From NCBI GenBank assembly GCA_050273025.1, contig CP158635.1, positions 15,624,001-15,688,000 of the forward strand: a stretch of DNA of 64,000 nucleotides. Direction: 5' to 3'. The translations under genes were made by a program, and so were the position numbers. Below are positions 8,788 to 36,053 of this stretch, piece by piece (positions within the stretch are counted from its first letter, which is position 1; each line of letters starts with the position of its first letter). Under the pieces are notes generated by a model, which did not search any database, was not told the DNA's origin, and worked only from the letters and a program-made list of their open reading frames with translations. The DNA comes from Cenococcum geophilum. Taxonomy: Eukaryota.

Positions 8788-8874
8788 AGTTGCTATTGCG
8801 TATATACTACAAATAGCCTAGAAGTAGACTTAACTTTAAAGTATAGATTAGTCTTCTTTTTAGAGTTGCTCTAG

Positions 8875-11479: not shown

Positions 11480-14400
11480 TTATTTCTAGAATTTAGCTCT
11501 AGAGACCGCCTAATAAGTAGGGAAAGTTGTTTAGGGGAATTTCTATAGTATAGGATCTGTTTTTTTCGCGCCTAAGAACTACTAGGAATAACTATTCTCT
11601 AGCATTTAATATAGCTCCTAGTCTCGCTTTAGGATTAAAGGTAAAGTTTAACAATTAAGGAAGGTTATTTAGAGGAACTTCTATAATATAAGACCCGTTT
11701 TTCTTACGCCCTAGAATAACTAGGAATAATAGTTCTTTTAAATTGGTATTAGAATTAAAAGTAGAGTTTAATAGCGGTTTTCGGGTGCGGCAATTATGTA
11801 TAGGGGATAACTTATATATAGATAGGGAATAGTAAGTCCACTAGAGATAATGCTTTATAGCGCGCTTTAAGTTTAACTAACCGCCGATAGGCGTTAATAG
11901 TTACACTATATACTTATAGACATTATTACCCTCGCCTTTATTATCTATGTCGCTACTATTGTTATTATAATTTTCGGCTTTAGCTAAATCGTTAGCAGGA
12001 TTATAAAGAACTTAATTTAAATAGTTACTAACCTTATTATAGGGTAGTATAGTGTTACAGGGAGAGAAGTACTAAAGGAAAGGGCTAGTAGGTTGCGCAG
12101 TAGAGGCCGCCTAGTTATTAGTATAGTTATAGAGGTTAAGGATAAGACTAGGAGAAAAGGTTTTATAAAAAAGTAATTTTTATTACTTTATAGGCCTAAG
12201 GTTCTTAAAATTATTAAAGCTATAATTAATATTTTTTAGTTACTTAAGCTAATTAAGTCTCCGCTTCTTTAATATTAATAATATACTTCTTAAGTTTGTT
12301 TTCTTACGCCCACCCTTATTAGCTAATAGGTTATCTATATTTATATTTATTAGTCTAGGGTTATAGTAATCGCAGTCTTTATAACTTACTAGCGCCCTTT
12401 ACTTTCCTAGCTTTTAAAGACTCTTAACTAGTAACTAATATTACGGGTTCCTAACTAAGCTGCGAAGTAGTTCTATTATAACGGCTATTAGCTAAGTTAT
12501 CGCTGTCTAGTAATATAGGTTTAGTATAGCTGCATATAGGTATATAGAAGAGCTCTTTTAACGCTTCTAATAAGGGTAACTTATTATTATTATTACTGCT
12601 ATTATTTCTATAATCTTTAGCTTCTAGGTCTAAGTTAGCTATATTATCTTTAATAACTATTAGATCCGCTACTACTTATTAGATATACACAGATACTAAA
12701 AAATAATAGGAAAGTGCTAGGATAAATTACCTTAACTACTTCCCCTACTACCACTTATATCGTAGATATCTTTATCCTCGCTATCCCTGTTATCCTTATT
12801 ATTATTCTTCTTATAATTATATTTAAAATCTATAGACACTTTATTAGGCGGAATATTTAAATTAAGGCCCTATATAGAGTAGAGTACCTAAGAGTAGCAA
12901 AGCTTAATACGCCTTGGGATCGTCTTTTAGGTAAAAATAAGGTCTATTAGACTTCCTCTAAAGTATACCCACGCTTATTATTAGGGCTGTAGGTTATATA
13001 ATACTACTAAGGGGCTTTTAGCTTTTCTTAAGTAGTAGTATAGAAATTAATTAAACGAAATTTCTAAAGAGAAACAGTGTTCGTTGCTATTACTTAAGGG
13101 GAATTACAGGATTTTAAAATACGCGCTAGTCCTACCTTTACCGCTAGCTTTCGCCTATAGCCTAGACTTCTTAACTAGCTAAGGCATCTAATATATGCCG
13201 TTTATAGGGTAAAGGTCTATAATGGCCTAGACCTACTACCTAATTAATACCTTTAGCAAATTATAGTTAGAATAGCGCCCTACCTACGCAGCTAAAATAT
13301 TTAGCTCTAATAAGGCCGTCGTATTGGTATTTCTTAATAAATGGCAGCGCTAACGTATTTACTCCAACCTAATAGAATTAATCTCCCGTATTAATTGTTA
13401 GCTAAATATAAAGCCTAATATATATACGCGTCGCTAGATATCTATAACAGAAGAAAATAGTATCCTTATTAGTGGTAAGCGGAGCCCCCTAATACTAACT
13501 ACTCTGATACGCCTACCGCCCGCATTAAATAATCTAGACCTACTAGCAGCGAGCGGGGCTCTTACTTTAAGACGCCTACTATATATATAATTATCAAATA
13601 ATTTAAGTATACTAGTGGCTCCCTACTAACCCCTCCGCTATTAACACACCTACCCTCTTATATTATTAAGTAATTTAAACCTACTAGCAGTAAGTAAAGC
13701 TCTTAAATACTAATCGCTTTATTACTAGTACGCCTACCGCCTATATAATTAAGTAACCTACTAGTAGTAAGCGGGACCCTCTAATGCTAATTACTCTATT
13801 ACTAGCACGTCTGCTAGCTATACTAAGTAATTTAAACCTACTATATAGCGAGCGAGGCTCTATTAAGTGACCCAAATATATTAATAGTAGGCGGTATAGA
13901 ATACTGCGTAATACTTACCCTTCTAATATAGACTGGCTAGTATTAATCCTTTATAGTTATATACTCTAACCTAAAAGACTAGACCTTTACCGCTTAAACG
14001 TTTTGTAAGTAGTAAGGTAGCTAAATAGTCCTTTACGCCTAAGTCTATAGACTATACAGTATCCTTAAAATGCCCGTTTTAATACAACCGTATAAATAGA
14101 TAGGTATGCGTATATAGCTACCTAAAAAGCTACTTATAAGGTCTAGTTCTAATAGCCTAGTAGGGTATAGTCGCTTAAATATTTAGCTAGGTTTTTACTA
14201 AGTAACTTAGTAGCATATCCTTATAATATAGGTAGCTTTGACTATTAGCGGACACTAAAGCTATTAGCTCTATACGATATATCCTAGGAAAAAAGAGCGC
14301 GTAATTAAATTATATAACGTATGCTTAACCCAGTAAAGAAGGCAGGGCGAGGTAGTACGCCTATCTATCCCTACCTAGGAAGGGTATATAAACGACTACG

Positions 14401-14700
14401 GAGTAGTCTTAATTAGGAATTAAAAGGAGAAAGGTAAGAGAGAAAGTAAAATTGTAAGGATATATACGCGCTAAAAGGACAGAGGTAGCACTAAAAAAAC
14501 TTAATAAGCATTAGAAAGTTGCTAATACTAAAGGCTAAAGTTAGGAGAGGCTAAAGGAAAGGCCGTAATTAACTATATTAATTATTAGTTAAAGATATAA
14601 AATAGATACTTATATATATATTAGCGCTAAGGGGCGAATATATTTTAATGCGACGGTAATGAGTAATAAGAAGAGGGGGAGGCGCGGTATAAAAAAAGAT
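11480..14700 (-). pseudogene. Unknown-family gene, copy A (paralogue of 52050-55433)
   Basis: Collinear nucleotide blocks are shared with 52050-55433: gaaaggccgtaattaactatattaattattagt (14557 vs 55287), agggctagtagg..agaggccgc (12081 vs 52675) and cgcttctttaa (12323 vs 52886). Confidence 0.75.
13470..13862. repeat. Degenerate ~65-80 bp tandem repeats inside unknown gene copy A
   Basis: Recurring acctactagcagcgagcggggctc...acgcctaccgcc...aagtaatttaa unit, about 5-6 copies. Confidence 0.75.
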
Positions 14701-14949
14701 AAGGATAAGAAGAAAATAAGGCCCTTTAAGGTAAAGATTGGGGGTCTTAACGGAGCTAAGGTTCGCTAAGTTCTTATAGACTAACCGCTCCTTACTAACA
14801 AATTCTCTACTTTATAGGGGATAGCCGTATATACGTACTTTCCCTACCCTATAACCAAATTCTACTATAGGGCGTCTAATTTATAAGATAATCCTTATAT
14901 AAGACAAACTTCGCGAATATTATCTCCTCTACATTACTATCTTTTAGCT

Positions 14950-17821
14950 AACTTTTACTTTTAGAGCTATTTTTCTTTCTTAAAGGAGGCAAGTAAAAAA
15001 TAATAAAATTTAGCTTAAAAGATTATTAATTAATTTTTATTTAATAATACTAGACTAGCTAGTACTATAGTTCCACATTAATATCTATTTCCTTTTTTAT
15101 CGCTCTAATCTTTACTAGTATTTAATTTCTTCTCTTTTTACCTATTTTTATATCTTTTTCTATCTCTATATATAATTCGTTAAGCCCTCCTTTTAGTATT
15201 TCTAATATACTGTCCTCTAGATATTTATACTCCCCTAAACCATTAAGAAACCCTTTTAACGTTTCTTTAGTATTTTATAATGCAATTTTAGGATCTCTAT
15301 ACCCTATTAATATTAGAACTACTTTAGTACTACTATACTAGAACTTACTTAGATTTATTCTTTTCTTTTCCCTATTCTTTTTTTTCTTTTTTTTATTCTC
15401 CTTTTTCTTCTTCTCCTCTTTATTCTTTTTCTTCTTTACCTTTTTTTTTTTCTTCTTCTCCTTTTCCTTTCTTTCCTTTTCCTTCTCCTTTTCCTTCTCC
15501 TTTTCCTTCCTTTCCTTTTCCTTCTTTTTCTTTTCCTTTTTCTTCTCCTTCTTCTTTTTCTCCTTTTTCTTATCCTTTCCTTTCTTCTCTTTTTTTTTTC
15601 TTTCTTTCCCTTTTTTTTTTAGCTTTCTTTTCTTTCCCTAATTCTATTAGCTTCTTATACTTTACTACTAGGGAATTTTCCTTACCCTTTATTGCTTCCC
15701 CGTCCTTATTATCTTCTTTATTATTCTTATTATCCTTATTACCTAAGTTATCTAAGTTATCTAAGTCGTTTAAGTCGCTATTCTCTTCTTCCTCTAATAA
15801 TTTATCTAATAAGGAGTTATCCTTATTATCCCTAAAGGAGGACAAGCCTAAGTTATCCTTATTGCCCTTATTATCTAAATCTAAGTTACTATCTTCTTCC
15901 TTCTCTAATAACTTATCTAATAAGGAGTTATCCCTAGAGGTAGAGTTATTAGAGTTATCCTTAGAGGAAGATAAGTCTAAGTTATCTAAGTTATTCCTAA
16001 AGGAAGATAAGTCTAAGTTATCTAAGTTATCTAAGTTATCCCTCTTTTTAAATTTCCTCTTACTTATCCGCTTCTCCCCCCCTATTAGCATCTATTACTT
16101 TCTAGTATATTTTAGTATACTATTAGGCTCTAGTTACTTCGCCTTCTTCTAATACCCCTCTAATTCCCTATTAATAAGTCCTAATCCGTACTTATTGTAT
16201 AATACGGTCCTTAAAAACTACCTCTTTACGCCCTTTACCTTAATATATATAGCCGTAATTGGTATATTAGTGTAATAGGGTGCGTTATTTTAACTTTTAA
16301 GAAGACATAACCTTTTAGGCTTAATTCTCTATCCATTAATACTATACCTTTAATAGTAATGCTTATAAAGGGGACATCCTTAATATACTTCTTTATGCCT
16401 TTTATAATTAGCTTAGAGTATTTATCCTTATAGATTTGTAAAATCCCCTTACCGAATCTTCCGCTTATAATAAACATATACCTTTTATAACCGTTAAATA
16501 TCTTTAGATGCTAGATTAAGAGCTAATAGCCGCTATAACTTACCTTTTACTAGCCCCTAAGCTACTACTATTAGCTATTTAACGAGACTTAACCTCGCTT
16601 CTTTGTCGCTGCTAAAGGTTTAAAAGTTTTATTAGTGTTATCTTTAGTAGCCTTTATATAATCCTTCTTTTTTCCTTTCTTCTTCTTTACTTCCTTTTTT
16701 CCCTTCTTCCCTTTCTTCTTTTTCTTCTTCTTTTTCTTCTTTTTTTCCTTCCCCTTTTTCTTCTTCCCCTTATCTTTCTTAGCTTTTTTCTTCTTTATAA
16801 ATAGGTCCGATTATAAAACGCCTACTACTCCACCTACTATTTTTTAAGAATATTATCGTTAAGAGTAAGGGTAAAAGGAAGAAAGTTTAGAAGATCCTTT
16901 CTTTATTCTCTATACTAAGCTACTAGTAATTTAGTATTAATTATATCTAGGTAGTTTTTCGCTATCCCTATACCAAAATTATCTAGTTCTCCTTTTATTA
17001 TATATATAAGTATATTTCTTAAATCCTTTAGTAATAGAAGAACTGTCCTATAATAAACAGTGCCTAAGAGTTTATAGCAGTTATATACTTTATTATATTT
17101 AATAGCTTCTTAATTTACTTTTCTTAGGTTATTAAAAGTTATAGAGTTATCTCTAATAACACCTCGCCAAAAAATAGGAACTAACTTTTTATTTTAGTGG
17201 TTAGTATAAAATTCACTAACTTAATTAGGATTAAAATTATTATCTTTTATTTCTTAATCTCCGTCCTTATCTATTGTTAGATCTTATAGCGTAGTTAAGG
17301 ACTTACTACGGCTAAACCCATTATTTAGCTCTGGCCTCTTTATACCTTTTTTTTTACTACTAGAAGAATAGTTAAAGTTAATTAAACCCTTCTTAGGGGT
17401 CCAATTCTTTATTTCTTTAACATATTCACTTAGAATATTAAGTTTTTTAGCAACGTTTATAATAACTATACAAAAGTTAGTCGTATATTATATATATATT
17501 AAACTCTATACTTTAAAGAGCCTTATCGCCATTATTTACGCCACTCCGCTTTAGATATACTTCCTATACTACCTTCCGCCATACTTATATTTTCTAAATA
17601 GGACTTAGGTTGTCGCCCTTCTTAAGTTAAATAAATTTTAGTAGACTGGCATCGTTATCACTCTACTTAAGAATTTTGTTAATCTTATTCTGGCGTATTT
17701 GGTTTTCTTATTTAGGTTTAGCTAGTTTTTTAGCCCTATCTCCCTTTCTCTATTACTTCTTTTAGAGATTATTATTAGGGAATAGGGTCGCTTATAGAGT
17801 AGGGGGCGCGCTATTAGCCAT
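14950..17821 (-). pseudogene. Unknown gene with Lys/Glu-rich and Asp/Ser-rich low-complexity tracts
   Basis: ATG at 17821 (MANSAPPTL...). Purine-rich KE tracts at 15350-15640 and 16660-16800, and a DN/SD tract at 15700-16050. ORFs 15570-16091 and 16235-16477 are pieces of it. Confidence 0.55.
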
Positions 17822-20800
17822 TTTTAATAAATTAACGCTAGTACCTAATAATAAATTTCTAAAGATTTAAATAAAAGGAAACTACCCTTTTATATTTACC
17901 TTAATTATATATAGTGGCATATATTTAGACTCTAGTAATTATATATAGACACTACTATATATAATTTATATCTATTTTAGTAAATTAGGAGGAGGTATAG
18001 GCCTTAAAACTAAGGTGGCGTTTTATTAAACATAGGGTAGTATTAGCCCTTTTAATCACGTTTATATAGAGGGTCTTAAATATACTTAATACGTAATTTA
18101 AATTAAATAATTTACTATCTATAGAAGTTGCCTTTATTACTTACATTGCTAGCAAATCACTATATTATTTAAAGACACTATATTACGGCTAGTTTTAAAG
18201 CATAAAGTAGGCAAATATAGAATTTTAAACTATATAAAGAAATATCTTCTAAAGCCTCCCCAACCTAACTAGGATATTAAATCGAGTTAACTAGGATCTA
18301 AGTCAATGGGAAATCTTATATAAAGGCGAGGTATAAAATACCTAAAAGAGTCTCTTAAGCCATCTCATTATCTAAATATTACTGGATTTGCACCTACTGC
18401 AATAAAACAACTACTTTAAGCTTAGCGATCCTCGCTTATTTCCTTTTATTCTCTAAAATAATATCTTATATTTTAAATAGCTTATCGGATTAATTTTATT
18501 CCCTAATATCTTAAAATATCTTTCTAAGTCGTTTAGCCGTCGCGGTCACGCGACTTAATTACTTTTAGTAATTATTAAGCCTCCTTTTTAACTCTTTTCT
18601 AGCTTTATAGGCTTCTTATTACTCCTTACGTTTCTAATTTTAAATCTAGGAAATTGCTATCCGATTATAAGAAACTTAAGTTTCCAGACTATAAATATAT
18701 TATATTATCTATTGCTCTTTAATAAAAAAGTCCCTAAGGAAGTTCTAATCCGAGCGCCTATTATATATCTTATAGTGCTAGTAATATCTAGGGTCCTATA
18801 ATTATTAATACTTAAGTAGTTTTTTTCTACTAGAGGTATACTACTAAGCCACAGCACTAGCTTTTATCCTTATAGTTAGTATAATAGGTTGCGTTATTTA
18901 TATTTCTAGAGTATAATACAATTCTAGAATAAAGGCTTCCTATACTAGTATATAAATCAACATTTTAATTATAAACTACTGCTAATTATAGGTTATGTCC
19001 GTTTTATTATAGTATGCAGGAGAGGTATAAGCATATATTACCCTAGCACAACCGCTAAGCGCTAATTACTTACCATTAAAAGAAAAATCTGTATATACGC
19101 GTACATTTCTACTAAAATTACTATTAAATACCGCCTGCCTTAAAATCAAAGAGCCACCCATTCTAAAATTATATACAGCGCTAGATAAAACCATTTTATG
19201 CCACCCTACTATTAACGTTGCTACTTTACTAACTTAGAAGGGAATGGAATAATAATATAGTTTATACTAGATCTAGCTTGTGCCTCCTTACTAAGTTAAT
19301 AGCTATAGGTGCGTAAAACTATAGGGGTTAGGGGAGGAAAGGTAATTCCTAGTCCTATATTCTGTATTAAACCGCATAATAAGTAAAAAGTTAGGAGTCC
19401 TCTCTACAATTTACCTACCGTATCGGTAGCCCCTTTTTAGTTTACTTACTTATATCTAACCTTATAGCTACTCTATAGGCATGGGAGGAGATCTACTGTT
19501 TAAACTTTTTTAAACTTTTAGTTCTTCTTAGGATTTCAGTTCTTCTTAGGATTTTAGTTTAGGCGTTTCTACTATAACTTAATTACTAACTTTATTTAAG
19601 GTAAACCGGTAGTCTTTCCGTTAAAGGCTGTTATAAGCTTAGACTAGGAGAAAGGGGGTAATATAGCCCGGAGTTTATAAAGAAGGTTTTTATTATCTAG
19701 TAACCAACCCTCTAACTAAGTAACAGCCTTTATAGTAGATAACTTTATAGGTAATAAGTTAAGAAAATAAGGGGTTAAATTATAAGCATTTTAAAGGACG
19801 GTCTTTTAAATCTACGTTCTGAATTAAATAAATATTAATCGGTAAGTTTTTAAGCTAATACTAGAATACTAACGGAATAGTAGGTAGTAAAGAGCGGCGT
19901 AGGCGCAGTAGGTAATAATGGACCATATATATCTGCTAATTAGCTAGCCACTTTATATAGCTCCTAGTATAACTAGCTAAACGCTTTACACGTATTAGCT
20001 TCTAGAGAATAATCACCAGAACTAACTCTAGAACTCGCACCTATAGCATTACTATCCGAAGTTAATTAGGCGTTTTACGCCTATAGTATTACCGGACTCT
20101 TTATATATTATAAAACACCATAATTAATCGGGCGCTCCGCGAAGTTCAACCGTTAGCTAGATTGCCTTAGACGCTCTACGCTTACTAAGCGCTAGGGTTT
20201 TTAACTTAAGGCAGTATTAACGCTAAAAAGATACCTAGCTTTATAATTACTTAAAGATAAAGAGCACCTACGCAGCAAGACTAACATCCTTTTACTTAAA
20301 CTCTATTAATCCTTTTCTACGAGGCTGTATCCTACTATAACTAGCTATAACTCTCTAGCGGATAATAAATACTAGGAGAGAATTATAAATAAAATTCTAG
20401 AGATAGATTAGGGTTCTATTAAAATCGATCCTCTTAACCTTAATAATATTTAGTTTTTAAACAACCTAGATATAGCTATACTGTAACACTCTAATATATT
20501 TTAGTAACCTTTTAGCTAGGGGGCTATACTAGAACAGCTGCAGCCTAATTAAGGAGACTAGAATAAGTAAAGATGTTAGCCTAATTTAGATCTGGGCCTT
20601 ATATGCATATATATTAGCCCGGAATTATTAGCTAAGACCTATATATTAATAGGTTTTAAGCTATCTAACGTCTATATACTGGCATAAGAGCTTTAAAAAA
20701 AGTAAGTTTTAGATTATTAAGAAAAATTACTTTACTAATATTGCTTAGATAAGAGCTAATAGCTAAGTAGGTAAAATTAGATAGATTACATCTTTATCTA

Positions 20801-22999
20801 AACTAATTATTAATAACAGACGGCTTAATTATCTTAACAATTATATAGCCGAGATGCAAGTATAGGCATTCTCTATTAGTGCAAGAATTAGGGAGTTAAA
20901 GGAGGCATTAAATAGTGGAAGTAATGGTAGTGAAGGTTGATAATTGGCTAGGTACCGAAATTTAGCACTAGATATTCTAATAGAGTCTTAATATATAGCT
21001 TTTATAGTACTTTTAAAAACTTATTAATCCCTTATTTATATTGCGAAGCCTTTTCCTAATAATAAATAGCAGCTTTCCTTATTAAACGGCATTTCCGCTA
21101 TAGTTCTATAATTTTAATATTTAAATTACTAAGCCCTTTATTAACTCCGTTGCTTTTTTACTACTTTCTTCTAGCTTCTATATTCCGTAGTTCTCTTATA
21201 CCTAACCCTTAACTCCTAATTTTATGGGTTAGATATCTATAGGAATTAAATTCTTTCTAGAAACTATTAGCTTATATTAAATAGTATTAGTAGTTTTATA
21301 CCTCTATAGTTTTAGTTCTTATAGCTCTAATAGTGTTTCTAATACCTAAGCATAGATCCTAATACGCTATAATAGAATGTTTGCTTAAGTGTTTTTTAAA
21401 GAGGTGTTATTTCTTAGGGGTTAGCTGCTATTAGTAAGGGTTATTATCTCTAGTAATAAGCCTTACTTCGTTTAGGGAAATAACTATATTAAGCTTATCT
21501 TCTGCTTACAGCCTAAGTAGATTACTTAAAATAAAAAGATGGCTAATATACTTAAATATTACGCTAATTATAAACGGCACCGCTGTCTCTATCGTGCTTT
21601 ATTTTCCTAGTAGAGTTTTAGAGAAAAGTTTGCAATTATATATAACTATACTAAAATTAAAATTTCTATTTTTAGTATCTTAATTCTCTTATAACTTTTA
21701 CTTTGAGTAAAAAAGTGCGCTAGAAACCTCTTTATATACCTTATATAGAACGCGATTAATACTCCCTTTAGGGTTATTTCTTTATTAACTATAAACTTAG
21801 GTTTTTATAGTAAAATAACCGCTCTCTTTACTTTCCACTAAAATATAGCGTCTAACTTAAGTGTAGTATATATAATGCTAAATAGATATGCCGGTTAACC
21901 AGTATTAGCTTTATAGAAAGTCTACTTTATCTAACTAGCTCGTCTAAAGTTTGCTAAAGTAGCGGCAAGCTATAGAACTTGCTTTTATTAGATGCGACCT
22001 ATTATATAGGGCACGGCATAGCCAGTTTAAAGAATGGCGTATTATAATGAAAAGTTATTAGGAAATAGACCCCGCTTTTCTAATACTAAACCTATAGGGT
22101 AAGCGGTAGCAATATAGGTATAATAGTCTATACCCAATTTTCCAGCCTAGCATTGTCTTATTATTTATAGCAATAGTAACACTATACGGGCTTTATTATG
22201 GCCTTATTAATTCCTTTTAGTATCTTAGTCTAGCTTAATCTTAAAATTTTTATATTATGTCTCGTAGGAATAAATCTCTTAAGTCCGCCAAATTATACTA
22301 GGGGTAGTCTTCGCTTTATAGGCGTAGCGGGTTTATATACTGCAATATAGAGCTAGGCTATTAAAGACTACTAAAGTGGCTATAGTAAGGTTAAACTTTA
22401 TCATTTTACGTGTAGAGGTCGGGGTATTTACATTATCTAATTATTCTATATACTACTTCTATCTCTTTAAAAGTTAACTATTATATAAGATTTGCCTAGA
22501 GCCGCTAGGGCTAGTATATATTGGCATTATAAAAGCTTAGTAACCTTAAAGCTAAGGAAGCAAACGCTATCCTATCTATTTAATTTAGAATTAATCTTTT
22601 CTAAAAATGGAAAAAGTCCTAGCTACTTTATACGGCAACTCTTTTATACAATCCTAACGCTAAGTAATTTAGATCCTATATCTTAGCCCTTTTGTAGGCT
22701 AGCTATTACTAGGACAATCTAGGAAATTTTACGTAATTATACCTTAATGCAGCTTCTAAGATTAAGGTATAGGGCCTATACGCACTTACTTCTCTCCCAC
22801 GCCTAAGAATAATATTATAATAGTTGCGGTTATAGCAAACTCTCTTAAACTTACTTAAAGCTTTTAAACGCTTAACTTAAGTACACATAGTCCCCTTTAT
22901 TATACCCCTATTAGCATTAATTTAAGCACAGTCTACCTAGCCTAAAGGGCTCTAACTTAGGTTAATCATTATAAAGCTATAGAAAATTATCTCTTGCCT

Positions 23000-24150
23000 T
23001 AAGCATACCAGCCTTAAACATGCTAGCCTTAAGCGGAAACGTAAAAAAAGTGCTAAACTTTTAGCACCTATAAAGGCTAGAAGAGATAAAGCTAGAGAAG
23101 AGCCTAATAATAGACTAAAGGAGTCTTATAAATATTAGGAGTATATAGGTTCTAGCCAATTTAATACTATTAATATAAGCCATCTTATATAAATAATTTA
23201 AATAATTATAAAAAGAGATCTAGCCTTATAGAAAATTGGCTATTTTAAAGTCTCGGTTCCGCTAGACGCGCTCTTTACTTACTTAAAATCTATAGAAGGC
23301 TAAATTATAGGGAAGTATAGTGCCCCCTTAAACTTTAATTATGCGGCTTATACAATACGGCCTTTACGCACTAAGGAGGTTATAGACTATGCTATATGCA
23401 ACCTTATATACTAGGCGTCTTCCAATTAATAAAAAGATAAGTTTAGGATCCTAAGGATTCTTTTTTATTAACCGTCTACCGCTATAAACCTATTTTACGC
23501 TACCAAAATCTAAAACAAAACCCTCCCGTACTTAATTTACCCTACCTCTACTAGCGGAAAACGGGAAACAATTAGCTTAGGTAGTAAGTTACTTCTTAAC
23601 TATAGGACTTAACTTAATAAGACAAAGGTAAAAATCCCTAGGATACATTTACTATACGCATATATTAGTAGTTCTTAGAATACGCCGGCAACTATATATA
23701 TAGAAGATGCTAGACTTAGCTCTATAAATCTTGTTTACGCTAGAGCCCCTAAGTCTTAGTTAATAGTCTCCCCTAACAATACGTACTAGTTAGAAGATAG
23801 AATTAAGGAGGTTTTTAGCTTTTAAAAGCGAAAATTAAACTTTAAGGTGCAGAAGTTAGCCTACTTCTAATTTATCCGGTATATAGATCTTATACTATAT
23901 AAGGAGTTACTTAATCTCTAGTATATTCGCTATAAAATTACCTATTACTAGTCTAGGGAAATGGTTATTACGTTGCCGTATATATACTATTAAATTTTAA
24001 ATAATAGAGTTAATATTGCTAAAGCTATTAACTTCGCACTTAAGGAGGACTAGGAACTTCCTCCTAACTATTGGTTCTATAGCAAAAAATATAGCTAGGC
24101 TCCTATTACGGAGAACGACCTTAGTATTATTAAAGGCGGGCCGCCTAAGA
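23000..24150 (+). pseudogene. JmjC-domain (histone demethylase-like 2OG/Fe dioxygenase) gene
   Basis: 23635-23775 reads IPRIHLLYAYISSS*NTPATIYIEDARLSSINLVYARAPKS*LIVSP, de-RIP IPGIHSPYAY...TMHxEDAGLGSVNLVYAGAPKSWL. It is followed by *SREMVITLPYIYY*ILNNRVNIAKAINFA (GEMVITLP..YHQ..N.G.NIAEAINFA). The gene may extend to ~26000. Confidence 0.88.
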
Positions 24151-27100
24151 GGTAGGTTAATTTATACGTAGATCTACCCTTACTAATTCCTTTAGCAGTA
24201 GTAACTACCCAAAAATTAGCGCCGTTCGAGGGAATTCGACTATCTTTACCCTTATAGAAGGAAGCGCTGACGTAGAGTATATCGCCCTATTGTTATCTAA
24301 AAAGCAACGCATTTCTTTAAACCCCACTATTAATATAAATATTTTAGACGCGTTACGTTATGATTTTTAATAATTAACGCCCCCTATTCTAATTCTATTC
24401 TCCCAATTTAATAATATAGTTATTACTTTCAGCCTTCTTCTTCTATCTATTATACGGACAATACAGCTAATATTTAACTATGTGACTACGCGTATTATTA
24501 TTAATTTATTATAGGAATCTTAGAGCAAGAGCGAATTAGTTAATTCTACCAATAGTAAGGTTAAGGATATTTATTGTATTCGTGCCTATATTTGAGATAT
24601 AAGGTAGGCTAAAAGTAGAACGCATAAAGGCGTCGCATAAAGGCGAATTAGTTAAGTCAAATTGCGGAAAAGCTTCGACTTCTATATCTAAGCTAAATTA
24701 GCTATCTTTTTAGAAAGGCGTAAAAAGAGCTAGCTGCGAAATAATGTCGTTCCTAGTAGGAAAGCCTAGGACTATATTTGAAATAACCTAATACTTAAGT
24801 TATTTAACAGAGATTAGAAAATTTTAAAAGGCACTAGAGATTCTGCCATTAGGATATTTAAGCATAACCTTAAGGTTAGCGCAATTCTTAAATTGTTCTG
24901 CTCCGTCTATAGTATTTAAATTTTATCTTTCCTCCCGACTATAGATGTAGAGCCCTAGCTTTGGTTTCTAAAAGTAAGCAATTACCTATAGTTAAAAGAT
25001 CTTACTAAAGCAATTGTGCTATTAGAGTAAGTCCTTAACTAATATCCATTTTAAGAAGCTAACTGGCTTAAAATATAATATAATAACAAAACGATAAGTA
25101 TAATTCTTCGTTAAGTAGCTTCTACTTCTCTAACCTAACCTTAAACGATTAGCTGAAATTAATGGCGATTTACTTAGTAGTAATATATTTTCAAATAAAA
25201 GTATATATCCTTTTACGGCGTAAGACGAGATTAGTAAATAAATTGCTACCTTAGCTATAGAGCAAGAACCACTTAATACTTTTTTTAGCTTTTTCCGTAG
25301 TAATTAAGGTAGTATTACTGTTCTATATAACTTAGGAGAAGCGTCTCTTCCAATTTATTCTACCCTCTTATAACATCACCACTATAGTTAGATGCTGCTT
25401 AGCGCTTTAGACTTCGGTATACCTAACGCGCCTTTAGTAAAACCTAAGAGCCTCCCTTACATTTAATAGCCCACTTTTATAGACCTAGGTATCCTTCCAA
25501 ACTACCTTATATTCGCGTCCTGTCTTAATTATCCTTTCCCCTATAATATTGTCAATCTCCTATTTATTGTTTAAGATTATTTTATTAATTTAGTTATATA
25601 TCACCCGGGAACCCTATAGGTAGGAATTTAGGTAGTATCGCTTTATCTAATTAGTGGCGGAGCTATTATACTTACCGTTATCTTTATTGTGCGGATTATA
25701 GGGGTTTAGATATAGACTAGTTAGTTTATTTATCTCACTCAGCCGGTATATACTCTTATTATCTAAGTCTTCTAGAGTAATTTTACCGCTTTAAACATCT
25801 AAAACGGCCTCGTTATTGTTAACCTAAGAAATATACATTCTAGATATTTTAGGGTAGGAGCTTTTTAGAAGATAATTCTAGACAATATTTCTTAATAAAG
25901 TGTTTAACGAAAAGTGGATAAAAAGAGGGTTAGAGGATATTTAGCGCTTATAAAGTTCTTATCTAGCTTTCTAATTCTAGAGCTAAGCTAGCTAATATAC
26001 ACAAATACAAAAAAAAAATATGCGAGTAGGGCGTCTAAAGATTAAAAGCCTAATCCTTAAGATAATTTTAGCATTCCCATATATATATCTCTAGCCATTA
26101 TTTTTAGAACTTAAGACTATATTTAATAAAAAATTTCTCCCTAAATTATAAAAATTAAAATGGCCCTTATACCCTAAACTTAACACTAAATATATATATA
26201 CTTCTCTTTTTTATTTTATGCGCGGTTATAGTAGTACACTATTAATCTCTAGGAGTAATTGCTAAGTAGGTAGATTACAGTTACTACAGAAATCTAGTCC
26301 TAATAAATTACAGTATTAATCAGTCTTTATTAATTGAAGTTGGGGCAGATATACCGGCAACTACGCCTAAAGGAGGCGAGCTTAAAGTAGACGTTAAGCT
26401 TAGCGTTAAGATTATCGCGACTATATCTCCTACTATAACTTCCTTATCGCTAATCCATACTATTTAAGTCGGTACTTAGGAAGATCTAATATTTTCCTTA
26501 AATTAAATATCTGTGCCTATTGGAGACATTATCTACTTTTAGTTTCTTAAACTAAACTATACTATATTATAATCCTCGCTTAAGAATCCGTACATACCTA
26601 ATAGGATTTTTAATATTAACTTTCTTTATTTTAACCCTAAAAACCGTATAGATAATATTATTTCCTTTTTTATCTAACATATAAGTCTATAATAGTTTTT
26701 CTGTAAATAAACGCTACTAGTTTTATATTACCACGCTAATATAGTCTTCGCTATTAACCCTAGGCCAAATATAGAAGAATTCCTTTATAATACTCGTCTG
26801 CTATAGTTTACCCTATAGACGAGCAGTATTATTAGACAGTTAACCACGAAACCGAATACTAGGAGTAGCCATTAGTAAGGAGGAATTACTAGCACTAGCC
26901 CAGTTAAGATAGCTAAAAGTTATTAAATACTAATATTATTTCCTATAAACCTAACTAACCTTAAAGGGAGTTATTGGATGGGAATAGGTAACGCTAGCAT
27001 CCCTAATAGTACTATCTTTTAACCTACCCTTTAGCCCTAGCCCTTAACTTAACTAGTAAATAGCGGGGGAATTTCTCTTCTACCTTTTACTAGTCTTTTT

Positions 27101-28779
27101 ATGTTATTAACTCTCGCTTTTATTTAGTAGTTTAGTGGGAATTTTATATTCTTATTTATATAGTCTAGTAAACAGAAGTCTTATTTATTTTCTTAGCCTA
27201 TTATATTATACTTTTCTAATAGCCTTGCAAATTTTATCTAAAGCGTTAATAATTTATAAGTTCGTTAATCTAATCTCCTAAACTCTCTTATAACCTCTTT
27301 CCAAGTTAACTTCCTTCTTACTCTTAAATTAAAAAGAAGAAAGTCCTGCCAATCTATTACACAATTCTAGAGTATTACGTATTTATAAGGGAATAGCATA
27401 GTCTAAGGCCGACAAGTTAGGTTCTCTAAATAGGGCTAATAAGCGTTTAACGGTTGACGAGACTTAAATAGTAGTTTAGAATAAAGATAAGTTTAAAAAG
27501 AGTTTAAAATATAACTAAGGTATAGAAGAGGATTATAGTATTTCTTTTTCTAAGTGGATCGAGAAGGCGAAGCTTAAAGAGATAGTGGGATAAGTAATAG
27601 AGGTAAAATTATTATAATTTTGGTAAAGTATAGATAGGAATTATATAACTTTTACTACTTTTAACTACAGTTTAAAACGTCTAACGTCTCAGAATAAAAA
27701 TAAACTTAGTTAACTCTATATATATATAATAATAAAAATAAAATATAGGGCATATATATACGTCCTTAAAAGACTTTAACTTAAAGAATTAATTAACTAC
27801 TTTACCTTAAAGATGTGCATTATTATAATATTTTTATTTAATCCAAATTATACTATCTAGAGGACTTTTAGGAAGATGCGTAATTAGATTTAAAAAATTA
27901 GAAGAGTAGATAACGCTACAGAATATTCTAAGCCACCACCTACCTATAGGTACTATTTTCTCCCCCTTTAACTTATATTATGGACTAATATATAACGGTA
28001 GCTATATAACCCTTAATGGGCTTAATAGTAGCGCATTAAGGCATATATCTAAAACTACTACTATTAATAGGGAAGGTAAAGAGGATACGCTAAATAGAGC
28101 TATACTAGAGGGAACTATACTAGAGGCGTTCTAGAGGGAGCTACGGCATAGGCTATACTAAGCCGCGTTAGATAAGGTTATATTAGAGGAGGCTAAGATT
28201 AGAACTTTAGTATAGAGCTAGGCTCTATATATTAATTTCTATAGGTTCTACCTTATCTTTCTAGTAATGTTAATAATTAAGTTAGGTTTAAAAAATAAAG
28301 CCAAAACTAATCTAAAATACAATTTTAAGGCTTAAACTAGTTATAAAATCGGTTAAACCAGATTAACTATAGTGTTTATTTACGTATTTTAGTGTACTTT
28401 TTGGCCTTAGTAAAGGCTAGCCCTATTTAGATTACAGCGCCCGTCCCTATAAGGTAGGTATTAGGAATATAAATAAGTTACCGTTATATATCGCCGCGGC
28501 ACTAGCGTAGCGAGGAGCCTTAAGCTCCTCGCCCTTTCTTAAGCAAGAGGAATATAGAATAATAATTATTATACTACCTACAACTTATAGATACGTAATA
28601 TTACCTTATATTACTAATAGTAGGGCTTAATAGGGGCTTATAATAAATATAATTCTAAAAAAAACCTATAAAAAAGTCTTTAGTATTTTATTTTTAAATA
28701 TAGATTTTGATTTTATATATAGGGATTTATTTTTAGATTAAAGAAGAAGTATATATACTTTCTTTATTCTTTTACTAAA

Positions 28780-30700
28780 ATATAACACTATAGAGATTGC
28801 TAAGATATATACTCTTGCCGCGGGCGGTATCCTTATAATATTCTATATTTTTAGGCTTCTATCTTTTCTCTCTCGTTTTAAATATCGATTAGTCTATATA
28901 TTTGTCCTTAACCATCTTATTTACCCGCGAATCTACTAAGGGTTATATTTTACTATACTACTCTCTAGGTACTAGGCCTTAATCCAAGCAATATACTGGT
29001 TAGGAACTATTATATGCAATATTCTTAGCGTATAATCTCTTTCTAATACTAGCTTAAGAGCTAGAATGCTTGCAATTATTAATTTTATACCTCTTTTTTT
29101 AGTAAGTCCCTTAGGCCTAGTAGCTAATATTATTAGTATATTATTACGGAGCTATACGCAGTTTTATGGCTTAATTGCTATTATAACTATAGTATAAAGC
29201 ATTTTCCACTTTTTAGTTATTTTAGCATAGCGGAATTTTTCTTTTAAAAATTCTAGCCATTTAACCGGATTTTTGGTTTATTATAATCTAAATATTTTAG
29301 AAAGTAACTAAGATATATTTAGGCTTTTGTCTTATTAACCCAGCTTATACTTTTCCCTTGCGTTTAAAGGTTCTGCTATAAAAATTTTCTAAAATCTTAC
29401 TATACTCTTACAGTCTTTATAGGGCTTGTAATATTATAATATATAAATCCCAGCACTGGCCTTAATCGAATCTATCCTATTACGGCACTTAGTCTCCTTA
29501 GAATAACGATAGTGCTTTATACCTTATGGATACTTTACCGTAATATCTGGTTTAGGAAATTAGGAGTAAATACGGTGTTATAGCACCTCTTAGATACCTT
29601 ATACCTTTTAATTACGCTTACCCGGCTATTAGACTTCCGCGCTAGCTAGTATATTTAACTTTAGACCCCTAGTATAAGCTTCTAATCGTTTACGTAAACA
29701 CACCTATTTATAATTATATGGTGGAACGAAGATAGGATAGAGATTAATCTTCTCCTAAAAGAACATAGCCGACGAGGATTTATCTATAAATTAGTTTATT
29801 AAAAAGAAAATAAGTTCCTAAGCTGGGTTAACGGACCTTATAGATCACCTCCTAGGCTAGGTAACTTTAGAACGGTAATTCTAATAGCTAAAGGTATTAG
29901 AATTGCGGTACAGCTACTATATATTAGGGAGGTTCTTATAGGCTACTAAGATCGCACAATCCTTATAAGAAAAATAGTCTTAATATAGCAATACTATAAT
30001 CCAAGTAAGTATATACTAAATTCTGCTAGAGATTATAAGCTATAATTTTTATTTTAGGCTATAAAGACTAGGTAGTATAAAGAATAAATAAACTAATTAA
30101 GTTAGATAGCACTTTTATAAGTAAACTTACTCTAATTAGGCTATTAGTAGTCTAATTAACTAGGTTTTTAAAATTCTTTATTTTAACTTAATAAAGAAGG
30201 ATAGCCCGGAGATTATTGGAAGAAAGTCATCTATTAAAATTAAAAGAGGCTTTGCGAATATTCCTAAATTACTAGCTAAGCAATTTAAGTATAAAAAGGT
30301 GGTTAAGAGATTTAAGAGTAGGGAGGGAAGAAAGCAAGTTAAAAATAAAAAGGTAGTTAAGAGATTTAAGAGTAAGGAGGGGAGAAAGTAAGTTAAAAAT
30401 AAAACTATACAATTAAAGGGTCGGAAAGGAAGAAGAATAATAATAGGTGTAAAAGTAACTCTTCTACTTATATCTTATTCTAATAAATATAGTCTCTAGG
30501 AATGCCGGCATTTAAAACAAAATATAAGACTTTATTCTAGCCTATAGGGCGTATAGTATTAAGCTAGTAAACCTTAAGTTTTAACTAGTAGAGATATATA
30601 AGCTAACGCCATTATAAGCTAATCTAGAGGAATCACGATTACAAGCTTAGAAGGGAATTTTTAGGTATTAAGATTATAAGCTAAAATATATAGAATAAAT
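28780..30700 (+). pseudogene. Ferric reductase / NADPH-oxidase-like transmembrane protein (FRE); Starship auxiliary gene
   Basis: IYTLAAGGI at ~28805. NFIPLFLVSPLGLVANIISI at ~29081. FRAS*YI*L*TP...THLFII (GQYI..W.P..HPF) at ~29635-29715. VNGPYR..TVILIAKGIRIAVQLLYI (DGPYG..GIGIA) at 29827-29925. Confidence 0.88.
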
Positions 30701-30849
30701 AGAGGAATTGGAACTATAGTAAAAGCTTTAGAGGATTAAGAGGAAATAAAATTATATTAGATTTACCCTTGCCGCCTACCCCACTTCTTAATAGCTTTAA
30801 TATATAACAATAATTCAGTCGGCTTCCGATATCCCTTAACTTTAGCATG

Positions 30850-31600
30850 CTCCTAAGCTCGCCTTTTAGAGATCTATATACTCCTTTAAGGAGGGGGTTG
30901 TTCTAGAACTATAGCAGTTATAGAAATACTTTATTAAATTATTACGGTAAGCGCAACGTGGTTCTTAAGAGCGGCATTCTTTTTTTGTCCACCCTTAGGC
31001 TTTTTATAAGTTTTGGTAACCCTTAAGCGGTCCGCTATCGCATAGGCTTCGCTAGCATGCGTATTAGGACTTTGTTAACGCATTTAAGTAACCCTTCGCT
31101 TAAGGCGATTGCGTATTTATTATTAAGAGATTACTATAGGTAGAGGGCTTACTTCTAGATTCTTCTATCGGTTAATAGCTATCGGTTTTAAGCCCTAGCT
31201 GTTATCCTAAATACCCTTTACTTTCCACTACTCTGCCACTTTCTCTATTGCCAATTTCTTAATATCTAAACCGGTTTTGCCAAGTCTCCCTTTAATATAG
31301 TTATTATAAAACTGTTCTTCCTTATTAAATTAGTCTTAATTAAATTATTAATTAGGGCGTACTTAATAGGTATTAACGGCGTATATAGGCTTAGGGCTAG
31401 GGCTGTAAGTTAGCTCTTCTAAGTAATATAGGGGTGGTAAATTATTAAGAAGATACCGTTTATGCTCCAGATCTTATAAATTAATCGCTTTAAGGGTGCG
31501 TTAAATTTAGGTAAAAAAATATAATATTCTGGCACTTCCTAGAGGTAAATAAGATATAGGTAAAGGGATAGAATAAAGGGATAAAAGTAGGTAAGATACG
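30850..31600 (-). pseudogene. Unknown gene with a W-x3-GIW-x3-W motif
   Basis: The minus strand reads KKLAIEKVAE*WKVKGI*DNS*G, de-RIP EQWKAEGIWDDSWG. It is divergent from the kinase gene. Confidence 0.4.
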
Positions 31601-31699
31601 GGATTTAGGTAAGATAGCGCAACCCTAAGTAGCGAATATAGGGTAGGGACCTAAAGCGCCAGAATATAGCTACGGCAGCGTACTATTACGCCCGCTATA

Positions 31700-33600
31700 C
31701 TAGAACCGAGAACAATAACATTATAGCTTCTTCTAAAACAAATAACCTTACGCCTTATATAACCTACTCTTTATCTAGCTTTCTTACTACCTTAGATATA
31801 CTTAGCGTGTAAGATTGTATAAGCTTTATTAGTATAGAGATAATAGTACTATGCCGCTTCTTAGGCAGTACGGCGGCCATTATTATAGTAAAATTAACGG
31901 CACTACACTTAAATCTAGAAAGCTGTTTATTATTAGTCCTATAATAAGCTTTTCTAAAAATAATAAATTCGCAATATCTATGCCCTTAACTATTATTACT
32001 ATTTATACTAAAGCTAATAAATATAAAAGCAGAATAAGTAGTTTAAGATTTACTTAATTATTATCTAGTATCCCAATTGCCAGATAATGCCCTAAAACTA
32101 GATATTAGCCTACTTCTTAACTTACGCTCTTTAAAATATCTTACTATTATTAGATATTTAGATTATAATATAACGGTTTAAGAACCCTAAATCTCTAGGC
32201 TTTAATGCGAGTTCTATATTCTTTAAAGTAAAGTTATTCTTCTTTAAGACTATAGCAGTCAATACACCACCTAGGTCTTAGGGGCGCGTCCTACCCCCTT
32301 TAAGGCCGGTCGCAAGCGCAAGGTTATTCTGCTCTCTACTAAAAATACTAAGATTAAAATAGGTGGCATAGCTTTAACACTAGTTTAGTTTAAGTTTCTC
32401 TAGCATAGAGACAATATCCTAAAAAAGTTAGAGACCTAGCTTAGCAACTTATTTAAAAGGGTAGAGGACCCTAGGCTTACGCGGATAATTAAAGAAGTGC
32501 TAACCGTTCTACTATCTTAACGGATAATAAGAATCTATACTCCCGTAAAGGCACTAGGGATATAATATAAAACCCTATAGGACATTAGCAGAGGCCAATT
32601 TAGGGCGATTTTCTGAGCTCTTAATATAGATTCTAGTACGTATATTATAAAAAAGTCAATTCTATTAGATAAAGCCGATTTAATTTATATTAAATAAGAG
32701 GTTAAGACTATTACACGTCTTACTTATATACGTTTAATCTCTTATAACATATAGTTATAATAATTTTTATCTATACTAACTTTTTCTATAGATGTATATT
32801 GTTAAATATATATAGCATAAGATAACTACTAGTGCGATTAACATATTCACTAAACTTATAGATAGTTTATTAGATAATCTCCGCGGCTTAAGCAATGCCC
32901 ACTATTATCCTATTACCTTTAACTATATCCTCTACGCTCTCGACTATCTAGATTAGAATTTATTTATCTATTAAGACGTTAAACCTACCAACATTCTCTA
33001 TAAGGCCACTATTAGTGGCCATTACTTCTAGCTAGGGGATTTTGGCATCTATAATAAGGTAGCATCTATAAAAACGTATTATAGTATAAGCCTTTATATA
33101 GCACCAGAGGTTTATACTAGGGGGAGGTAGTTAATAAAGGCTAACGTCTAGTTATTAGCAGTTACTATATTTAATATAAGAGATAAGTATAGGTTCTATT
33201 TAAGATTGGAGGCTCTTTATATAAGATTAGATCTTAGGGATCTATCCTAGTAGGCATCCCAATAGGACGTATTTAATATTATTAGAGCCATAGTAAATAA
33301 GACACTATTTAAAGACTTAAAAGCGATGGTCGCTTTTAGTCCCCTATAACGCCCCTTAGCAACTTAGTTACTCCTATAAGCCTAGGAGTAACTTTAGAAG
33401 GCTGCTAAAGTCTAGGAGCCACCTTAGAAGAAACTAATTAATACTAGTATTAAAGTAAAAACTAAGATACCTGCTAAACTAGATATAGCACAAGTCGTAT
33501 AATAAGGGAGAGTTGGCCTATCTTTATAGGGTATATTAAAAGGTAAGGTTTAAAAGGAAGACATTTTACTATATTTTAGTTAAGAGCCATTTACCCATTT
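31700..33600 (+). pseudogene. Ser/Thr protein kinase (catalytic core ~32570-33400)
   Basis: DISRGQFRAIF (GxGxFG) at 32581. ALDYLD*NLFIY*DVKPTNIL (HRDVKPxNIL) at ~32935-33000. F*LGDFG at ~33030. YIAPEV at ~33095. The 5' boundary is uncertain. Confidence 0.9.
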
Positions 33601-33699
33601 TATTTAAATAGTTTGCTTCTATATATACTTATCCCTTATACAGTAACTAAGAACTATTCTATATTATTCCAATCTCTAAACTATTAAGGAACGTAGTCT

Positions 33700-34760
33700 A
33701 CTCGCGAATAGCATCCCAATTCCCTCTTAATAGGTATATTTTCCAAAGCTAGCCTTTTAAAGTGTTAAGCGATAATTTTTAAGGAATTTTAGAAGAGTTT
33801 CCTTAGTAATAGTCACTTACTAAAGAGTAAAAGACTTAAGGTATAGAAAGCGGACCCTCTTAGCAATGCTTTTAAGAATTAGAGGACTAGCATTACTAAA
33901 AAATTTAAAGAAAAAGCCTAAGTTAAGGACTTAGATATTTTCCGCAGCTAATAGGAAGTTTATAGCTAATTATATATCCCTTAGCTTTACGCCTTTCGGC
34001 AGTAGCTAAGGATAGATATTATTAGTGCGGATTATAATTTAAAGAGTAGTAAGGGTTTAAAAAGCTAGTCTTAAACGCTTAAATTACTAACCTAAAATTA
34101 TATAAAGAGCCGTAAGGTTAACTCTATTATCTAAAGTATTAATATTAAATTTAAATAGATCTAGCTTAAACTCCAAGATCGGGATAGGGTAAGTAGTTAG
34201 TGCAGTTAAAACGGTTTTAAAGGTTTCAATAACATCTATATCCTATTTAGCGGTAGTCTGCTAATAAATAGTTGTAATACCTTAACTAGGAGTTCGATCT
34301 AATAACTTAAGCCTATAGATTTTAACTTAATATAGGTTTAAAAGGTTGCGCAATATAACTAAGAGAATTGCACTTCTAAATCCTAACCTCTTAGCGTATT
34401 CTTAGTCGTTATATAAAATAGTAAACTAACGCTAATCTTATGTCATTGGAGGGTTATTATATAATTCTTCGCTTAATGGCCAGACCTAGAGGTCCTAGTT
34501 TTACTTTAGCCATTTAGTTCCAAATCTAAGAGTCTATAGGCGTTTAGTAAAGGGTTCTTATAAAATTTCTAGTAAGGTTTTAAGAGCTAGTTAGGAAAGT
34601 ATAAAGCGTTTAGTTATAAAGAGACCACCAAAATAGTCAAAGTAGTAATACTTAACTTGTTGGCATATAAGTTGGAAAGCCACTACCGCTTCTATAGGTA
34701 GGAAACTAAGTATTTTTTTAAAAAGTTTAATAGGTAGATTAACAATTATAATAAAATAGT
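33700..34760 (-). pseudogene. F-box domain protein
   Basis: The minus strand reads IVNLPIKLFKKILSFLPIEAVVAFQLICQQV, de-RIP LPVELFEKILSFLP..L.CQQ. It is followed by KRFILS*LALKTLLEIL*EPFTKRL*TL, typical of fungal F-box proteins. Confidence 0.7.
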
Positions 34761-35801
34761 TATTGTTTCTTACATTATTATACTAGAAGTCCCTGCTATT
34801 AATATTATATTATAAAAACATCTTTAAAAAAATAATAAGTTAAAAATAGATAAGTTAAAAATAATAGTATAATGGAATACTAAAGCGGCTTAATAGACGC
34901 CGACTGCGATCGCCTAAAGCGCCGTCTAGTATACACCTTAGGAAAAACCCTAAACCGTGCTAAGTACCCTCCTACCTACTTATTTTGGTATAAACTTTAC
35001 TAAAGGCGGATATATTTAATCCTATAAAGGTTAGAACGCTTTAAAGAAGATATCTTATAACCTTTATAATTTGTTCTTTTATCGGTAGCTATAAAGGCCA
35101 CTTAGCAGATATATATATAAATAGTTTCCCTTTATAGCTAATAAGAATATAAATATCTACATTATCAAGGCATTATAGCTCCTCCGCTTTTTTAAATACC
35201 GTTTCCCTTCTTTTACAAATTAGTTTATAAAGTTATTTAGCCTTTACCTTTTAAATCTTCGTATCTAGGTTTAGGTATAGTATTAAGTCAATACTAGTCT
35301 GTAATTTATACTGCTTATAACGCCTAGTGCTCTTCTCGCTCTCTATATTAGAATCTAGGTATTCTATAAGGCATATAGTAACAGGATAGTAGTATAGTAA
35401 ATAATAAGACGTAAGAACTAGGGTAGGTAGAAAGCGGTATACAAAGCTTACTTTAATAAGGAAGGGGGACTTAATAGATAAGGGTAATTTTATAAAAGAT
35501 AGATATAAAGCATAGAGGCTAAGGTATTAAGGTATATAATTTATAGAAATAAAGATAATAAAAATAGAAGTCTAAAAAATATATATATAATAAAAGCTTA
35601 GCCGCGAAGTTTAATATAATAAACCTTAAAGACGTAACACTTAAAATATAAAACAACCCTAGTAGTACTGCATATAGAATTAGGGCATAAAATTTCAGAA
35701 TTAGGGGGTAATTAATCAAAGTGCCGCTTAATATAATCCATTATCTTTATAGGTCGACACTATACAAAATAGTAATTAGGGTCTAGTAAAGATTTATCTT
35801 A

Positions 35802-36053
35802 AAGCTGCCGTGCGTAAAGGACGGCAGTAATACTTTAAGATATCCTCATTCTTAGATTATAGTACTCTTTTTAGCTTAAAGGTCTATTTCTAGTTTAGCA
35901 TTCTTATCCTTAGCATATTTAGCAGGAGCATTTTATAATTACTAGTTTAATAGATTTAAATTCTTTATATGCTCTATACAATATATAGTAGTAAAACTCT
36001 AATTACTACCTTACGTAAGCTACATTCTCACTTAGCCTAGTTACGTTATACTA
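35802..36053 (+). repeat. 252-bp inverted repeat, left copy (candidate TIR)
   Basis: Aligns end to end with the reverse complement of 51525-51776, and the differences are almost all transitions. Confidence 0.93.

Follow-up and report, generated by a model that had tools for sequence, protein, structure and literature searches.

A divergent KDM4-like JmjC gene within a Starship relic of Cenococcum geophilum

The VANC proteins of Arabidopsis are reportedly transposon-encoded anti-silencing factors, and are said to act as sequence-specific DNA binders. In fungi, a question of interest is by what means giant Starships maintain expression of captain and cargo despite heterochromatin. Here we describe a stretch of 64,000 nucleotides from Cenococcum geophilum (assembly GCA_050273025.1, contig CP158635.1, positions 15,624,001 to 15,688,000; hereafter the window), which lies on contig C1 of a host genome of 178 Mb in seven contigs. 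A first-pass annotation had noticed in it a JmjC demethylase-like gene within a heterochromatin-prone mobile region, and had proposed that the mobile element may once have encoded its own chromatin anti-silencing factor. We find that the element is a Starship and that the JmjC gene is almost certainly its cargo, from a divergent KDM4-like family; the first-pass interpretation as a whole is partly supported.

JmjC genes are already listed as Starship cargo. Table S7 of PMC11162782, as far as it was accessible, holds 38 JmjC rows, which correspond to 33 Starships from seven genera among ~585 elements, and 0 rows for JmjN. In the passages of the main text that were searched, the word ‘histone’ has no match and the JmjC cargo passes uncommented; the one supplement of PMC9156397 that was searched gave no match, and a full-text literature search, with most subscription papers outside its scope, returned no paper on JmjC as Starship cargo. 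Starship families are described, in the available part of one preprint, as differing in their cover by the histone marks H3K9me3 and H3K27me3 (bioRxiv 10.64898/2026.01.28.702382). Papers on Pyricularia, in the parts available, list MGG_02032 (MoJMJD3) and MGG_02045, the latter called fungal-specific; the close numbering of MGG_02032 and MGG_02045 (MoJMJD8) (PMC10412966) resembles that of a pair of JmjC genes carried by a single Pyricularia Starship, a mapping that is unverified.

The Starship and its JmjC gene

The left end of the element is at C1:15609918, 14.1 kb upstream of the window, and the last ~190 bp of its right end have been displaced by nested insertions (Table 1). An alignment of two complete copies spans 63,785 columns with 90.9% identity; both copies have sharp ends, and their flanks differ; the copies remain collinear well beyond the JmjC gene. 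Among the nine JmjC-bearing copies in the genome, a DUF3435 captain stands at the matching place in seven and a DUF3723 gene in eight. A TTACT-type direct repeat is present at both termini, together with an imperfect inverted repeat of ~21 bp (~17 of 21 matches by eye). Because it combines sharp ends, a DUF3435 captain, DUF3723, and both direct and inverted terminal repeats, we identify the element as a Starship, which gives the mobile region of the first-pass annotation a more precise identity.

Right ends of the TTACT type have A as the base after TTAC(N7) in five of eight cases. A second right-end type (loci L103-L119) has ~566 bp in common with the JmjC-bearing Starship and ends in TAACT; here A stands at +8, after TAAC(N7), in 17 of 17, and the JmjC copy at C2:25.85 Mb seems to be of this type. 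At two loci (L085, C4:13083931; L091, C1:32915465) a right end is joined head-to-tail to a left end across a single TTACT, which means either insertion in tandem or a circle junction that became integrated. The Starship load of the genome is very high: at least 165 DUF3435 matches (from the 100 of 341 candidates that were scored) alongside 85 to DUF3723. Stops are present in nearly all of these; one at C3:7969165-7970527 has only a single stop.

The frame at 22986-24254 (forward strand) contains 22 stops in 423 codons, every one of them TAA or TAG. With stops read as X its translation matches the Pfam family JmjC (PF02373) at an expectation value (E) of 2.5e-5 and 25.1 bits, against a cut-off of 24; the wrong frame, used as control, matched 0 families. 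Homology with intact relatives spans ~23110 to 24130, with E down to 1e-54. All nine candidate copies of the gene were scored: the other eight are 91-93% identical to that of the window, and none of the nine is intact (16-24 stops each). Three DNA runs from other isolates, in which all 30 bins were covered and many C/T and G/A variants were seen, gave no clearly intact allele in short contigs.

In the window copy the iron-binding triad reads Y-I-E...Y and is broken. Across the nine copies the first His is present in two, the Glu in eight and the second His in two, and the single copy with all three ligands still has 16 stops. The motif expected as GAPKxW appears as (R/K)APKS in all nine, with the W in two; AEAINFA is intact in two. 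Hence the HxE..H triad and the GAPKxW and NxAEAxNFA motifs, which the first-pass annotation held to be recoverable, are indeed recovered across the copies, though not literally in the window; the KDM4/KDM5-like signature that it saw in them agrees with KDM4D and KDM4A as the nearest solved structures.

Exon 1 is followed, across a short intron, by ~300 further codons in the same frame. The column consensus of this second exon scored 30.7-33.1 bits against profiles iterated from relatives only, a score reached by none of 1000 shuffles; iteration succeeded from three of four seeds and gathered 50-53 of the 96 C-terminal tails of relatives. Single copies score weakly (E < 0.05 in four of nine; E 0.45 for the window copy), small or whole-tail profiles gave no significant match (E 0.15; one of 200 shuffles higher), and Pfam gave none. 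In a model of the relative P0077 the domain is predicted to be all-helical; a fold search with a low-confidence model of the domain gave no Atlas match with a template-modelling score (TM), taken by query, of 0.5 or above. From these profiles, exon 2 is best described as a predicted fused helical domain, as yet unnamed, common to ~50 of 96 relatives. The metagenome contig L146 (1009-4691) has a JmjC open reading frame (ORF) next to a helical-domain ORF in another frame, which is the same architecture in split or spliced form. The earlier suggestion that coding-like sequence at 24300-26000 is a fused domain thus stands as far as ~25090; from ~25,300 onwards the sequence belongs to a separate ORF on the minus strand.

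Almost the whole window has undergone repeat-induced point mutation (RIP): GC content is 33%, the composite RIP index reaches ~1 or more across most kilobases, and no more than four stop-free stretches of at least 100 codons remain. In the JmjC region TpA/ApT is 1.65 and (CpA+TpG)/(ApC+GpT) is 0.43, and over 6 kb 1422 of the 1463 columns that vary among the JmjC copies are C/T or A/G. The locus is now dead and, as a RIP relic, ordinary.

Its earlier state can be read from the differences among copies. Deletions are absent from exon 1 in all nine copies and from exon 2 in eight. When a beta-binomial model is fitted to 521 polymorphic RIP sites, ~0.4 fixed sites are predicted for each polymorphic one; on this basis ~8 stops fixed in all copies are expected in exon 1 under independent RIP and four are seen, and in exon 2 nine are seen against ~7.5 expected. 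Correlation between pairs of copies is low, from -0.01 to 0.29, and of the 33 transversions 31 are private to one copy. Given the pattern of stops, the lack of exon 1 deletions, the low correlations and the private transversions, we infer that the element spread to nine copies with its ORF still intact, and that each copy was then separately subjected to RIP.

Table 1. Features of the window and of the Starship that enters it (window positions unless preceded by C1)
Feature	Position	Strand	Remarks
DUF3435 captain	C1:15611373-15612401	+	~12 kb upstream of window, 1.45 kb inside left end
DUF3723 gene	C1:15622598-15623584	-	upstream of window, same Starship
Starship body	1..55433	+	~63.7-kb element; collinear at ~90-92% with two complete copies
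JmjC gene, exon 1	22986..24151	+	basic N-terminal stretch, JmjN-like segment (~23220-23260), KDM4-like JmjC core; RIP pseudogene, start codon not fixed
Iron-binding triad codons	23697..23990	+	His 23697 (window: Tyr), Glu 23703, His 23988 (window: Tyr); codons counted over nine copies
Intron	24152..24195	+	44 nt, GT-AG, CTAAT branch point; joins exons 1 and 2 in frame; predicted from sequence in nine copies
JmjC gene, exon 2	24196..25090	+	alpha-helical domain without Pfam family, family-wide; matched part ~24400-24975
Possible short exon 3	25155..25304	+	uncertain; few stops in frame; no clear canonical donor
Chromodomain-like segment	25380..25601	-	separate convergent ORF; Pfam Chromo E 0.031, 14.6 bits, below cut-off of 25.1; match in one of four in-frame versions
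Paralogue of chromodomain-like segment	51780..51999	-	79% DNA identity; repeat D6; no Pfam match
MADS/SRF-type DNA-binding cargo gene relic	34858..35526	-	Pfam SRF-TF E 3.7e-6
Nested long terminal repeat (LTR) retrotransposon	2679..9048	+	93% terminal repeats; TG..CA ends, 5-bp duplication; absent from other copies
Nested LTR-retrotransposon-like insertion	55434..60794	+	interrupts Starship right end
Relic of a DUF3435 captain, from a second and distinct Starship	62852..63568	+	C1:15686852-15687568; E 1.4e-52

A divergent family of KDM4-like proteins

A HMMER search for relatives returned 466 clusters at E <= 0.001, of which 150 were listed; those with names come from Neofusicoccum, Macrophomina, Diplodia, Xylona, Sarea and Pleopsidium. 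A word-indexed search with the RIP-damaged translation scored none of 1824 candidates. The alignment comprised 151 proteins, four canonical KDM4s among them, and 150 of these cover the triad. The H-x-E...H ligands are kept in 144 of the 150, so that intact homologues retain the catalytic residues whose loss would have spoken against the first-pass reading. The residues that bind 2-oxoglutarate (2OG) are likewise kept (Asn in 143 of 151, Lys in 147). For the remaining positions we take the KDM4A numbering and the roles of pocket and zinc residues as commonly assigned, the alignment itself having been made to KDM4D. Counted over all 151 proteins, the methylammonium pocket retains its Gly in 142, Tyr in 141 and Asn in 141, and the KDM4-type Cys-His-Cys-Cys zinc site its four residues in 145, 146, 134 and 130, respectively. 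Position 288 is Ala in 128 of 151, and Ala is the state given for KDM4D in the accessible text of PMC3308871.

Predicted structures point the same way: models of two relatives match KDM4A and KDM4D best, and one relative's model aligns to KDM4A with Z 18.6 and a root-mean-square deviation of 2.5 over 202 residues. Domain content is distinct. Among 60 relatives scanned by Pfam, no PHD, Tudor or ARID domain was found; SET fusions occur in five (four over the cut-off) and Ulp1-like fusions in eight (two over the cut-off), while JmjN is weak in three and over the cut-off in none, unlike canonical KDM4s.

Phylogenetic trees of the JmjC domain against the host KDM families, which the first-pass annotation had called for, were built from 166 and 68 rows; they contain few KDM4 rows, their backbone is poorly resolved and the RIP copies bring a bias in composition. 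In both, the element sits within the divergent family, in a clade apart from KDM4 and from KDM5, each of which includes an intact host gene. The branch that separates the element from the KDM4 group, which has five rows, carries a Shimodaira-Hasegawa-like approximate likelihood ratio (SH-aLRT) of 91. The host's own KDM4 and KDM5 genes occupy other loci and have no RIP signature, so the JmjC gene is not the syntenic orthologue of either core gene.

Taken together, sequence comparison and trees place the gene in what is, by all these markers, a large divergent KDM4-like JmjC family, with a predicted JmjN-like/JmjC core and an unnamed helical domain rather than PHD/Tudor readers. An Aspergillus survey, in the portion available, recognises six fungal JmjC groups, one of them patchy and labelled KDM6B/JMJD3; hundreds of divergent KDM4-like proteins with the helical domain appear to lie outside these six groups. 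A scan of metagenomes confirmed four of 85 stretches: two are family members on short contigs and two, being distant, were dropped.

The same genome holds a second RIP-mutated JmjC gene, of another subclade, in four copies (C5:10307521, C4:19502242, C7:4840614 and C6:12071955), which brings the JmjC copies in the two multi-copy elements to 13. Both second-subclade copies tested also have the helical domain (E 6e-7 and 1e-6), and a same-strand DUF3723 lies 42-72 kb downstream in four of four. For the one copy examined, the 58 kb upstream, where nested repeats hid collinearity, yielded no captain; because of this the second element may be called Starship-like, not a proven Starship.

Proposed function and competing explanations

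The intact protein was probably an active oxygenase, to judge from its family's conserved residues. We propose that it would have been an Fe(II)/2-oxoglutarate methyl-lysine demethylase, directed at repressive methylation of histone H3 lysine 9 (H3K9) or lysine 36 (H3K36) on Starship or other accessory chromatin; captain and cargo would thereby stay expressible. The helical domain may serve in targeting or oligomerisation. The gene would be a helpful yet dispensable accessory that gives no lasting protection from RIP, and its dispensability is suggested because many sister left ends are without a JmjC copy. The parts of this proposal differ in strength. That the protein was a histone demethylase easing repression of accessory DNA or chromatin is possible and the likeliest of the readings considered, and we hold it tentatively; that it was specifically an anti-silencing factor serving the element is, although plausible as a role, unlikely on present evidence. 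We are equally doubtful of the broadest form, in which a widespread clade of KDM4-derived demethylases with a helical targeting domain would have been captured repeatedly by Starships, erasing H3K9/H3K36 methylation on the element.

In favour of the proposal are the retention across the family of triad, 2OG, pocket and zinc residues, KDM4A and KDM4D as the closest structures, Ala at position 288, the SET and Ulp1-like fusions, the presence of a second subclade in another repeat, and the listing of JmjC for 33 Starships in Table S7. RIP acts separately, as a premeiotic defence, and the RIP of all copies therefore does not refute an anti-silencing role. Several observations weigh against it. At the position of Lys241 the element has Ile, and just 10 of the 151 aligned proteins, the four canonical KDM4s included in the set, have Lys; in KDM4A the substitution K241A is reported, in the accessible text of PMC5969224, to leave peptide binding normal and to abolish demethylation nearly completely. 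Sequence selectivity of KDM4 lies outside the pocket, according to the available part of PMC3308871, and an H3K9 substrate is for this reason not predicted by pocket conservation. Stops are present in all nine copies of the element and in both second-subclade copies that were translated (two of four). A survey of left ends scored 40 of 79 candidates, all 40 of them loci with the same Starship left end, and 33 of the 40 are without a JmjC copy, though some of the 33 may be truncated. The JmjC rows of Table S7 are not tied to the element's family by sequence, and no captain was seen by eye in the ORF lists of the two short metagenome contigs with relatives. Finally, MoJMJD3, whose location in a Starship is unverified, is described in the available part of its source as cytoplasmic.

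This last description would fit a different use of the same chemistry, in which the protein would be a 2OG oxygenase active on a substrate that is cytoplasmic or not a histone, an ordinary cargo that affects the host and has no part in keeping the element open. The loss of Lys241 and the absence of histone-reader domains from all 60 relatives scanned agree with it, as does the action of KDM4A-C on non-histone substrates in vitro (PMC3308871, in the part available); the bearing of MoJMJD3 (MGG_02032) depends on a Starship mapping and a family membership that are both unverified. The KDM4 methylammonium pocket and zinc site are nevertheless conserved, SET and Ulp1-like fusions point to chromatin, and a basic stretch at the N-terminus of the element's protein resembles a nuclear signal in sequence. 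We regard such an oxygenase as unlikely, yet as an alternative to be taken seriously.

Slightly less likely is that the gene was a passenger: a fast-evolving accessory gene of plastic regions, picked up by proximity and of no advantage to the element. A JmjC copy is paired with 7 of the 40 scored left ends, JmjC is listed for ~33 of ~585 catalogued Starships (PMC11162782, Table S7 as accessible), and the second-subclade copy examined has no captain in the 58 kb upstream. Mere proximity fits poorly with two separate multi-copy elements in one genome that carry different subclades, and with catalytic residues kept across very diverged members.

It is improbable that the protein acted as a non-catalytic or uncoupled binder, which would bind methyl-lysine and oppose silencing by competition, turning over 2OG without efficient demethylation. 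The family is without the lysine whose substitution in KDM4A spares binding and hardly permits demethylation (PMC5969224, in part), and fission-yeast Epe1 offers a precedent (PMC7192584, in the part available); against this, the iron and 2OG ligands are near-invariant, and KDMs outside KDM4 are described in the same part of PMC5969224 as functional without Lys241. That the gene is a misplaced copy or orthologue of host KDM4/Rph1 or KDM5 in a segmental duplication can be set aside as very improbable indeed, for although its best PDB matches are KDM4, the two host genes are intact elsewhere, free of RIP and in separate clades, and the copies have sharp common ends, different flanks and a captain.

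Were the broadest form correct, fungi would have an anti-silencing system that is both enzymatic and encoded by transposons, and this might account for the euchromatic state of some Starships. That such elements bring along a means of countering silencing is a plausible hypothesis. Element-encoded counter-defence can be tested directly on a cargo family that recurs and whose demethylase active site is intact. Should anti-silencing fail, a large divergent KDM4-like group with an unnamed helical domain remains of note.

Other contents of the window and comparison with known systems

Pfam gave a match over its cut-off in one of 15 cargo segments. The segment at 28421..30042 on the forward strand we take, from a resemblance of motifs seen by eye, to be a possible ferric-reductase-like cargo relic; Pfam returned no match, and its identity as FRE is not confirmed. 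Internal paralogous segments (12070-13500 and 52660-54350; 35800-36056 and 51522-51778) are 74-87% identical in direct and 86% in inverted orientation, and include the duplicated chromodomain-like ORF. Long pyrimidine-rich repeats occupy 15327-16800, where the minus strand reads as a low-complexity protein rich in Lys/Glu/Arg and in Asp/Asn. Tandem arrays are found at 10817-10977 (17-bp unit) and 8690-8787 (28-bp unit).

Between 55434 and 64000 the element is interrupted, ~190 bp before its right end, by an LTR-like element followed by another Starship. Immediately past another copy (C3:21007257) there is a related captain; together with the second Starship in the window, this suggests Starship-in-Starship nesting near the right end.

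The element resembles Starships as described in the available parts of PMC10104507 and PMC11162782: a DUF3435 captain lies 1.45 kb from the 5′ end, DUF3723 and a short TTACT repeat are present, and an imperfect inverted repeat of ~21 bp encloses tens of kilobases of cargo, inactivated by RIP when multicopy. It differs in that all nine JmjC-bearing copies are RIP relics. The TTAC(N7)A target of the Hephaestus type (PMC10104507, in part) is approached closely, but the A at +8 follows only five of eight right ends. The cargo of Table S7 (PMC11162782, as accessible) is similar in that JmjC without JmjN occurs in Starships of Fusarium, Colletotrichum, Fonsecaea, Ilyonectria, Lasiodiplodia, Macrophomina and Pyricularia, and in that some rows are annotated JmjC+SET, as in the family described here; it differs in that its annotation is automatic and falls into two classes, perhaps two families.

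With KDM5/JARID1/Jhd2 the family shares the triad, the AEAxNF motif and the want of a Lys241 equivalent. It differs in having no ARID, PHD or C5HC2 domain and in keeping the KDM4-type zinc site, and KDM5 is the more distant both in the trees and in structure ranks. With VANC-type factors it would have in common that the element itself brings protection from silencing; those are reportedly DNA binders, whereas here the protein is a JmjC enzyme whose activity is only proposed. The closest likeness is to KDM4/JMJD2/Rph1: a JmjN-like segment and JmjC fold and, in intact relatives, the triad, the 2OG Asn and Lys, the pocket and the zinc site, with Ala-288 as in KDM4D. In contrast to KDM4, the family forms a separate, fast-evolving clade that has lost Lys241, in which JmjN falls below the Pfam cut-off and PHD/Tudor domains are replaced by a helical domain or by Ulp1-like or SET fusions, and whose member here is a multi-copy gene where KDM4 is a single-copy part of the core genome.

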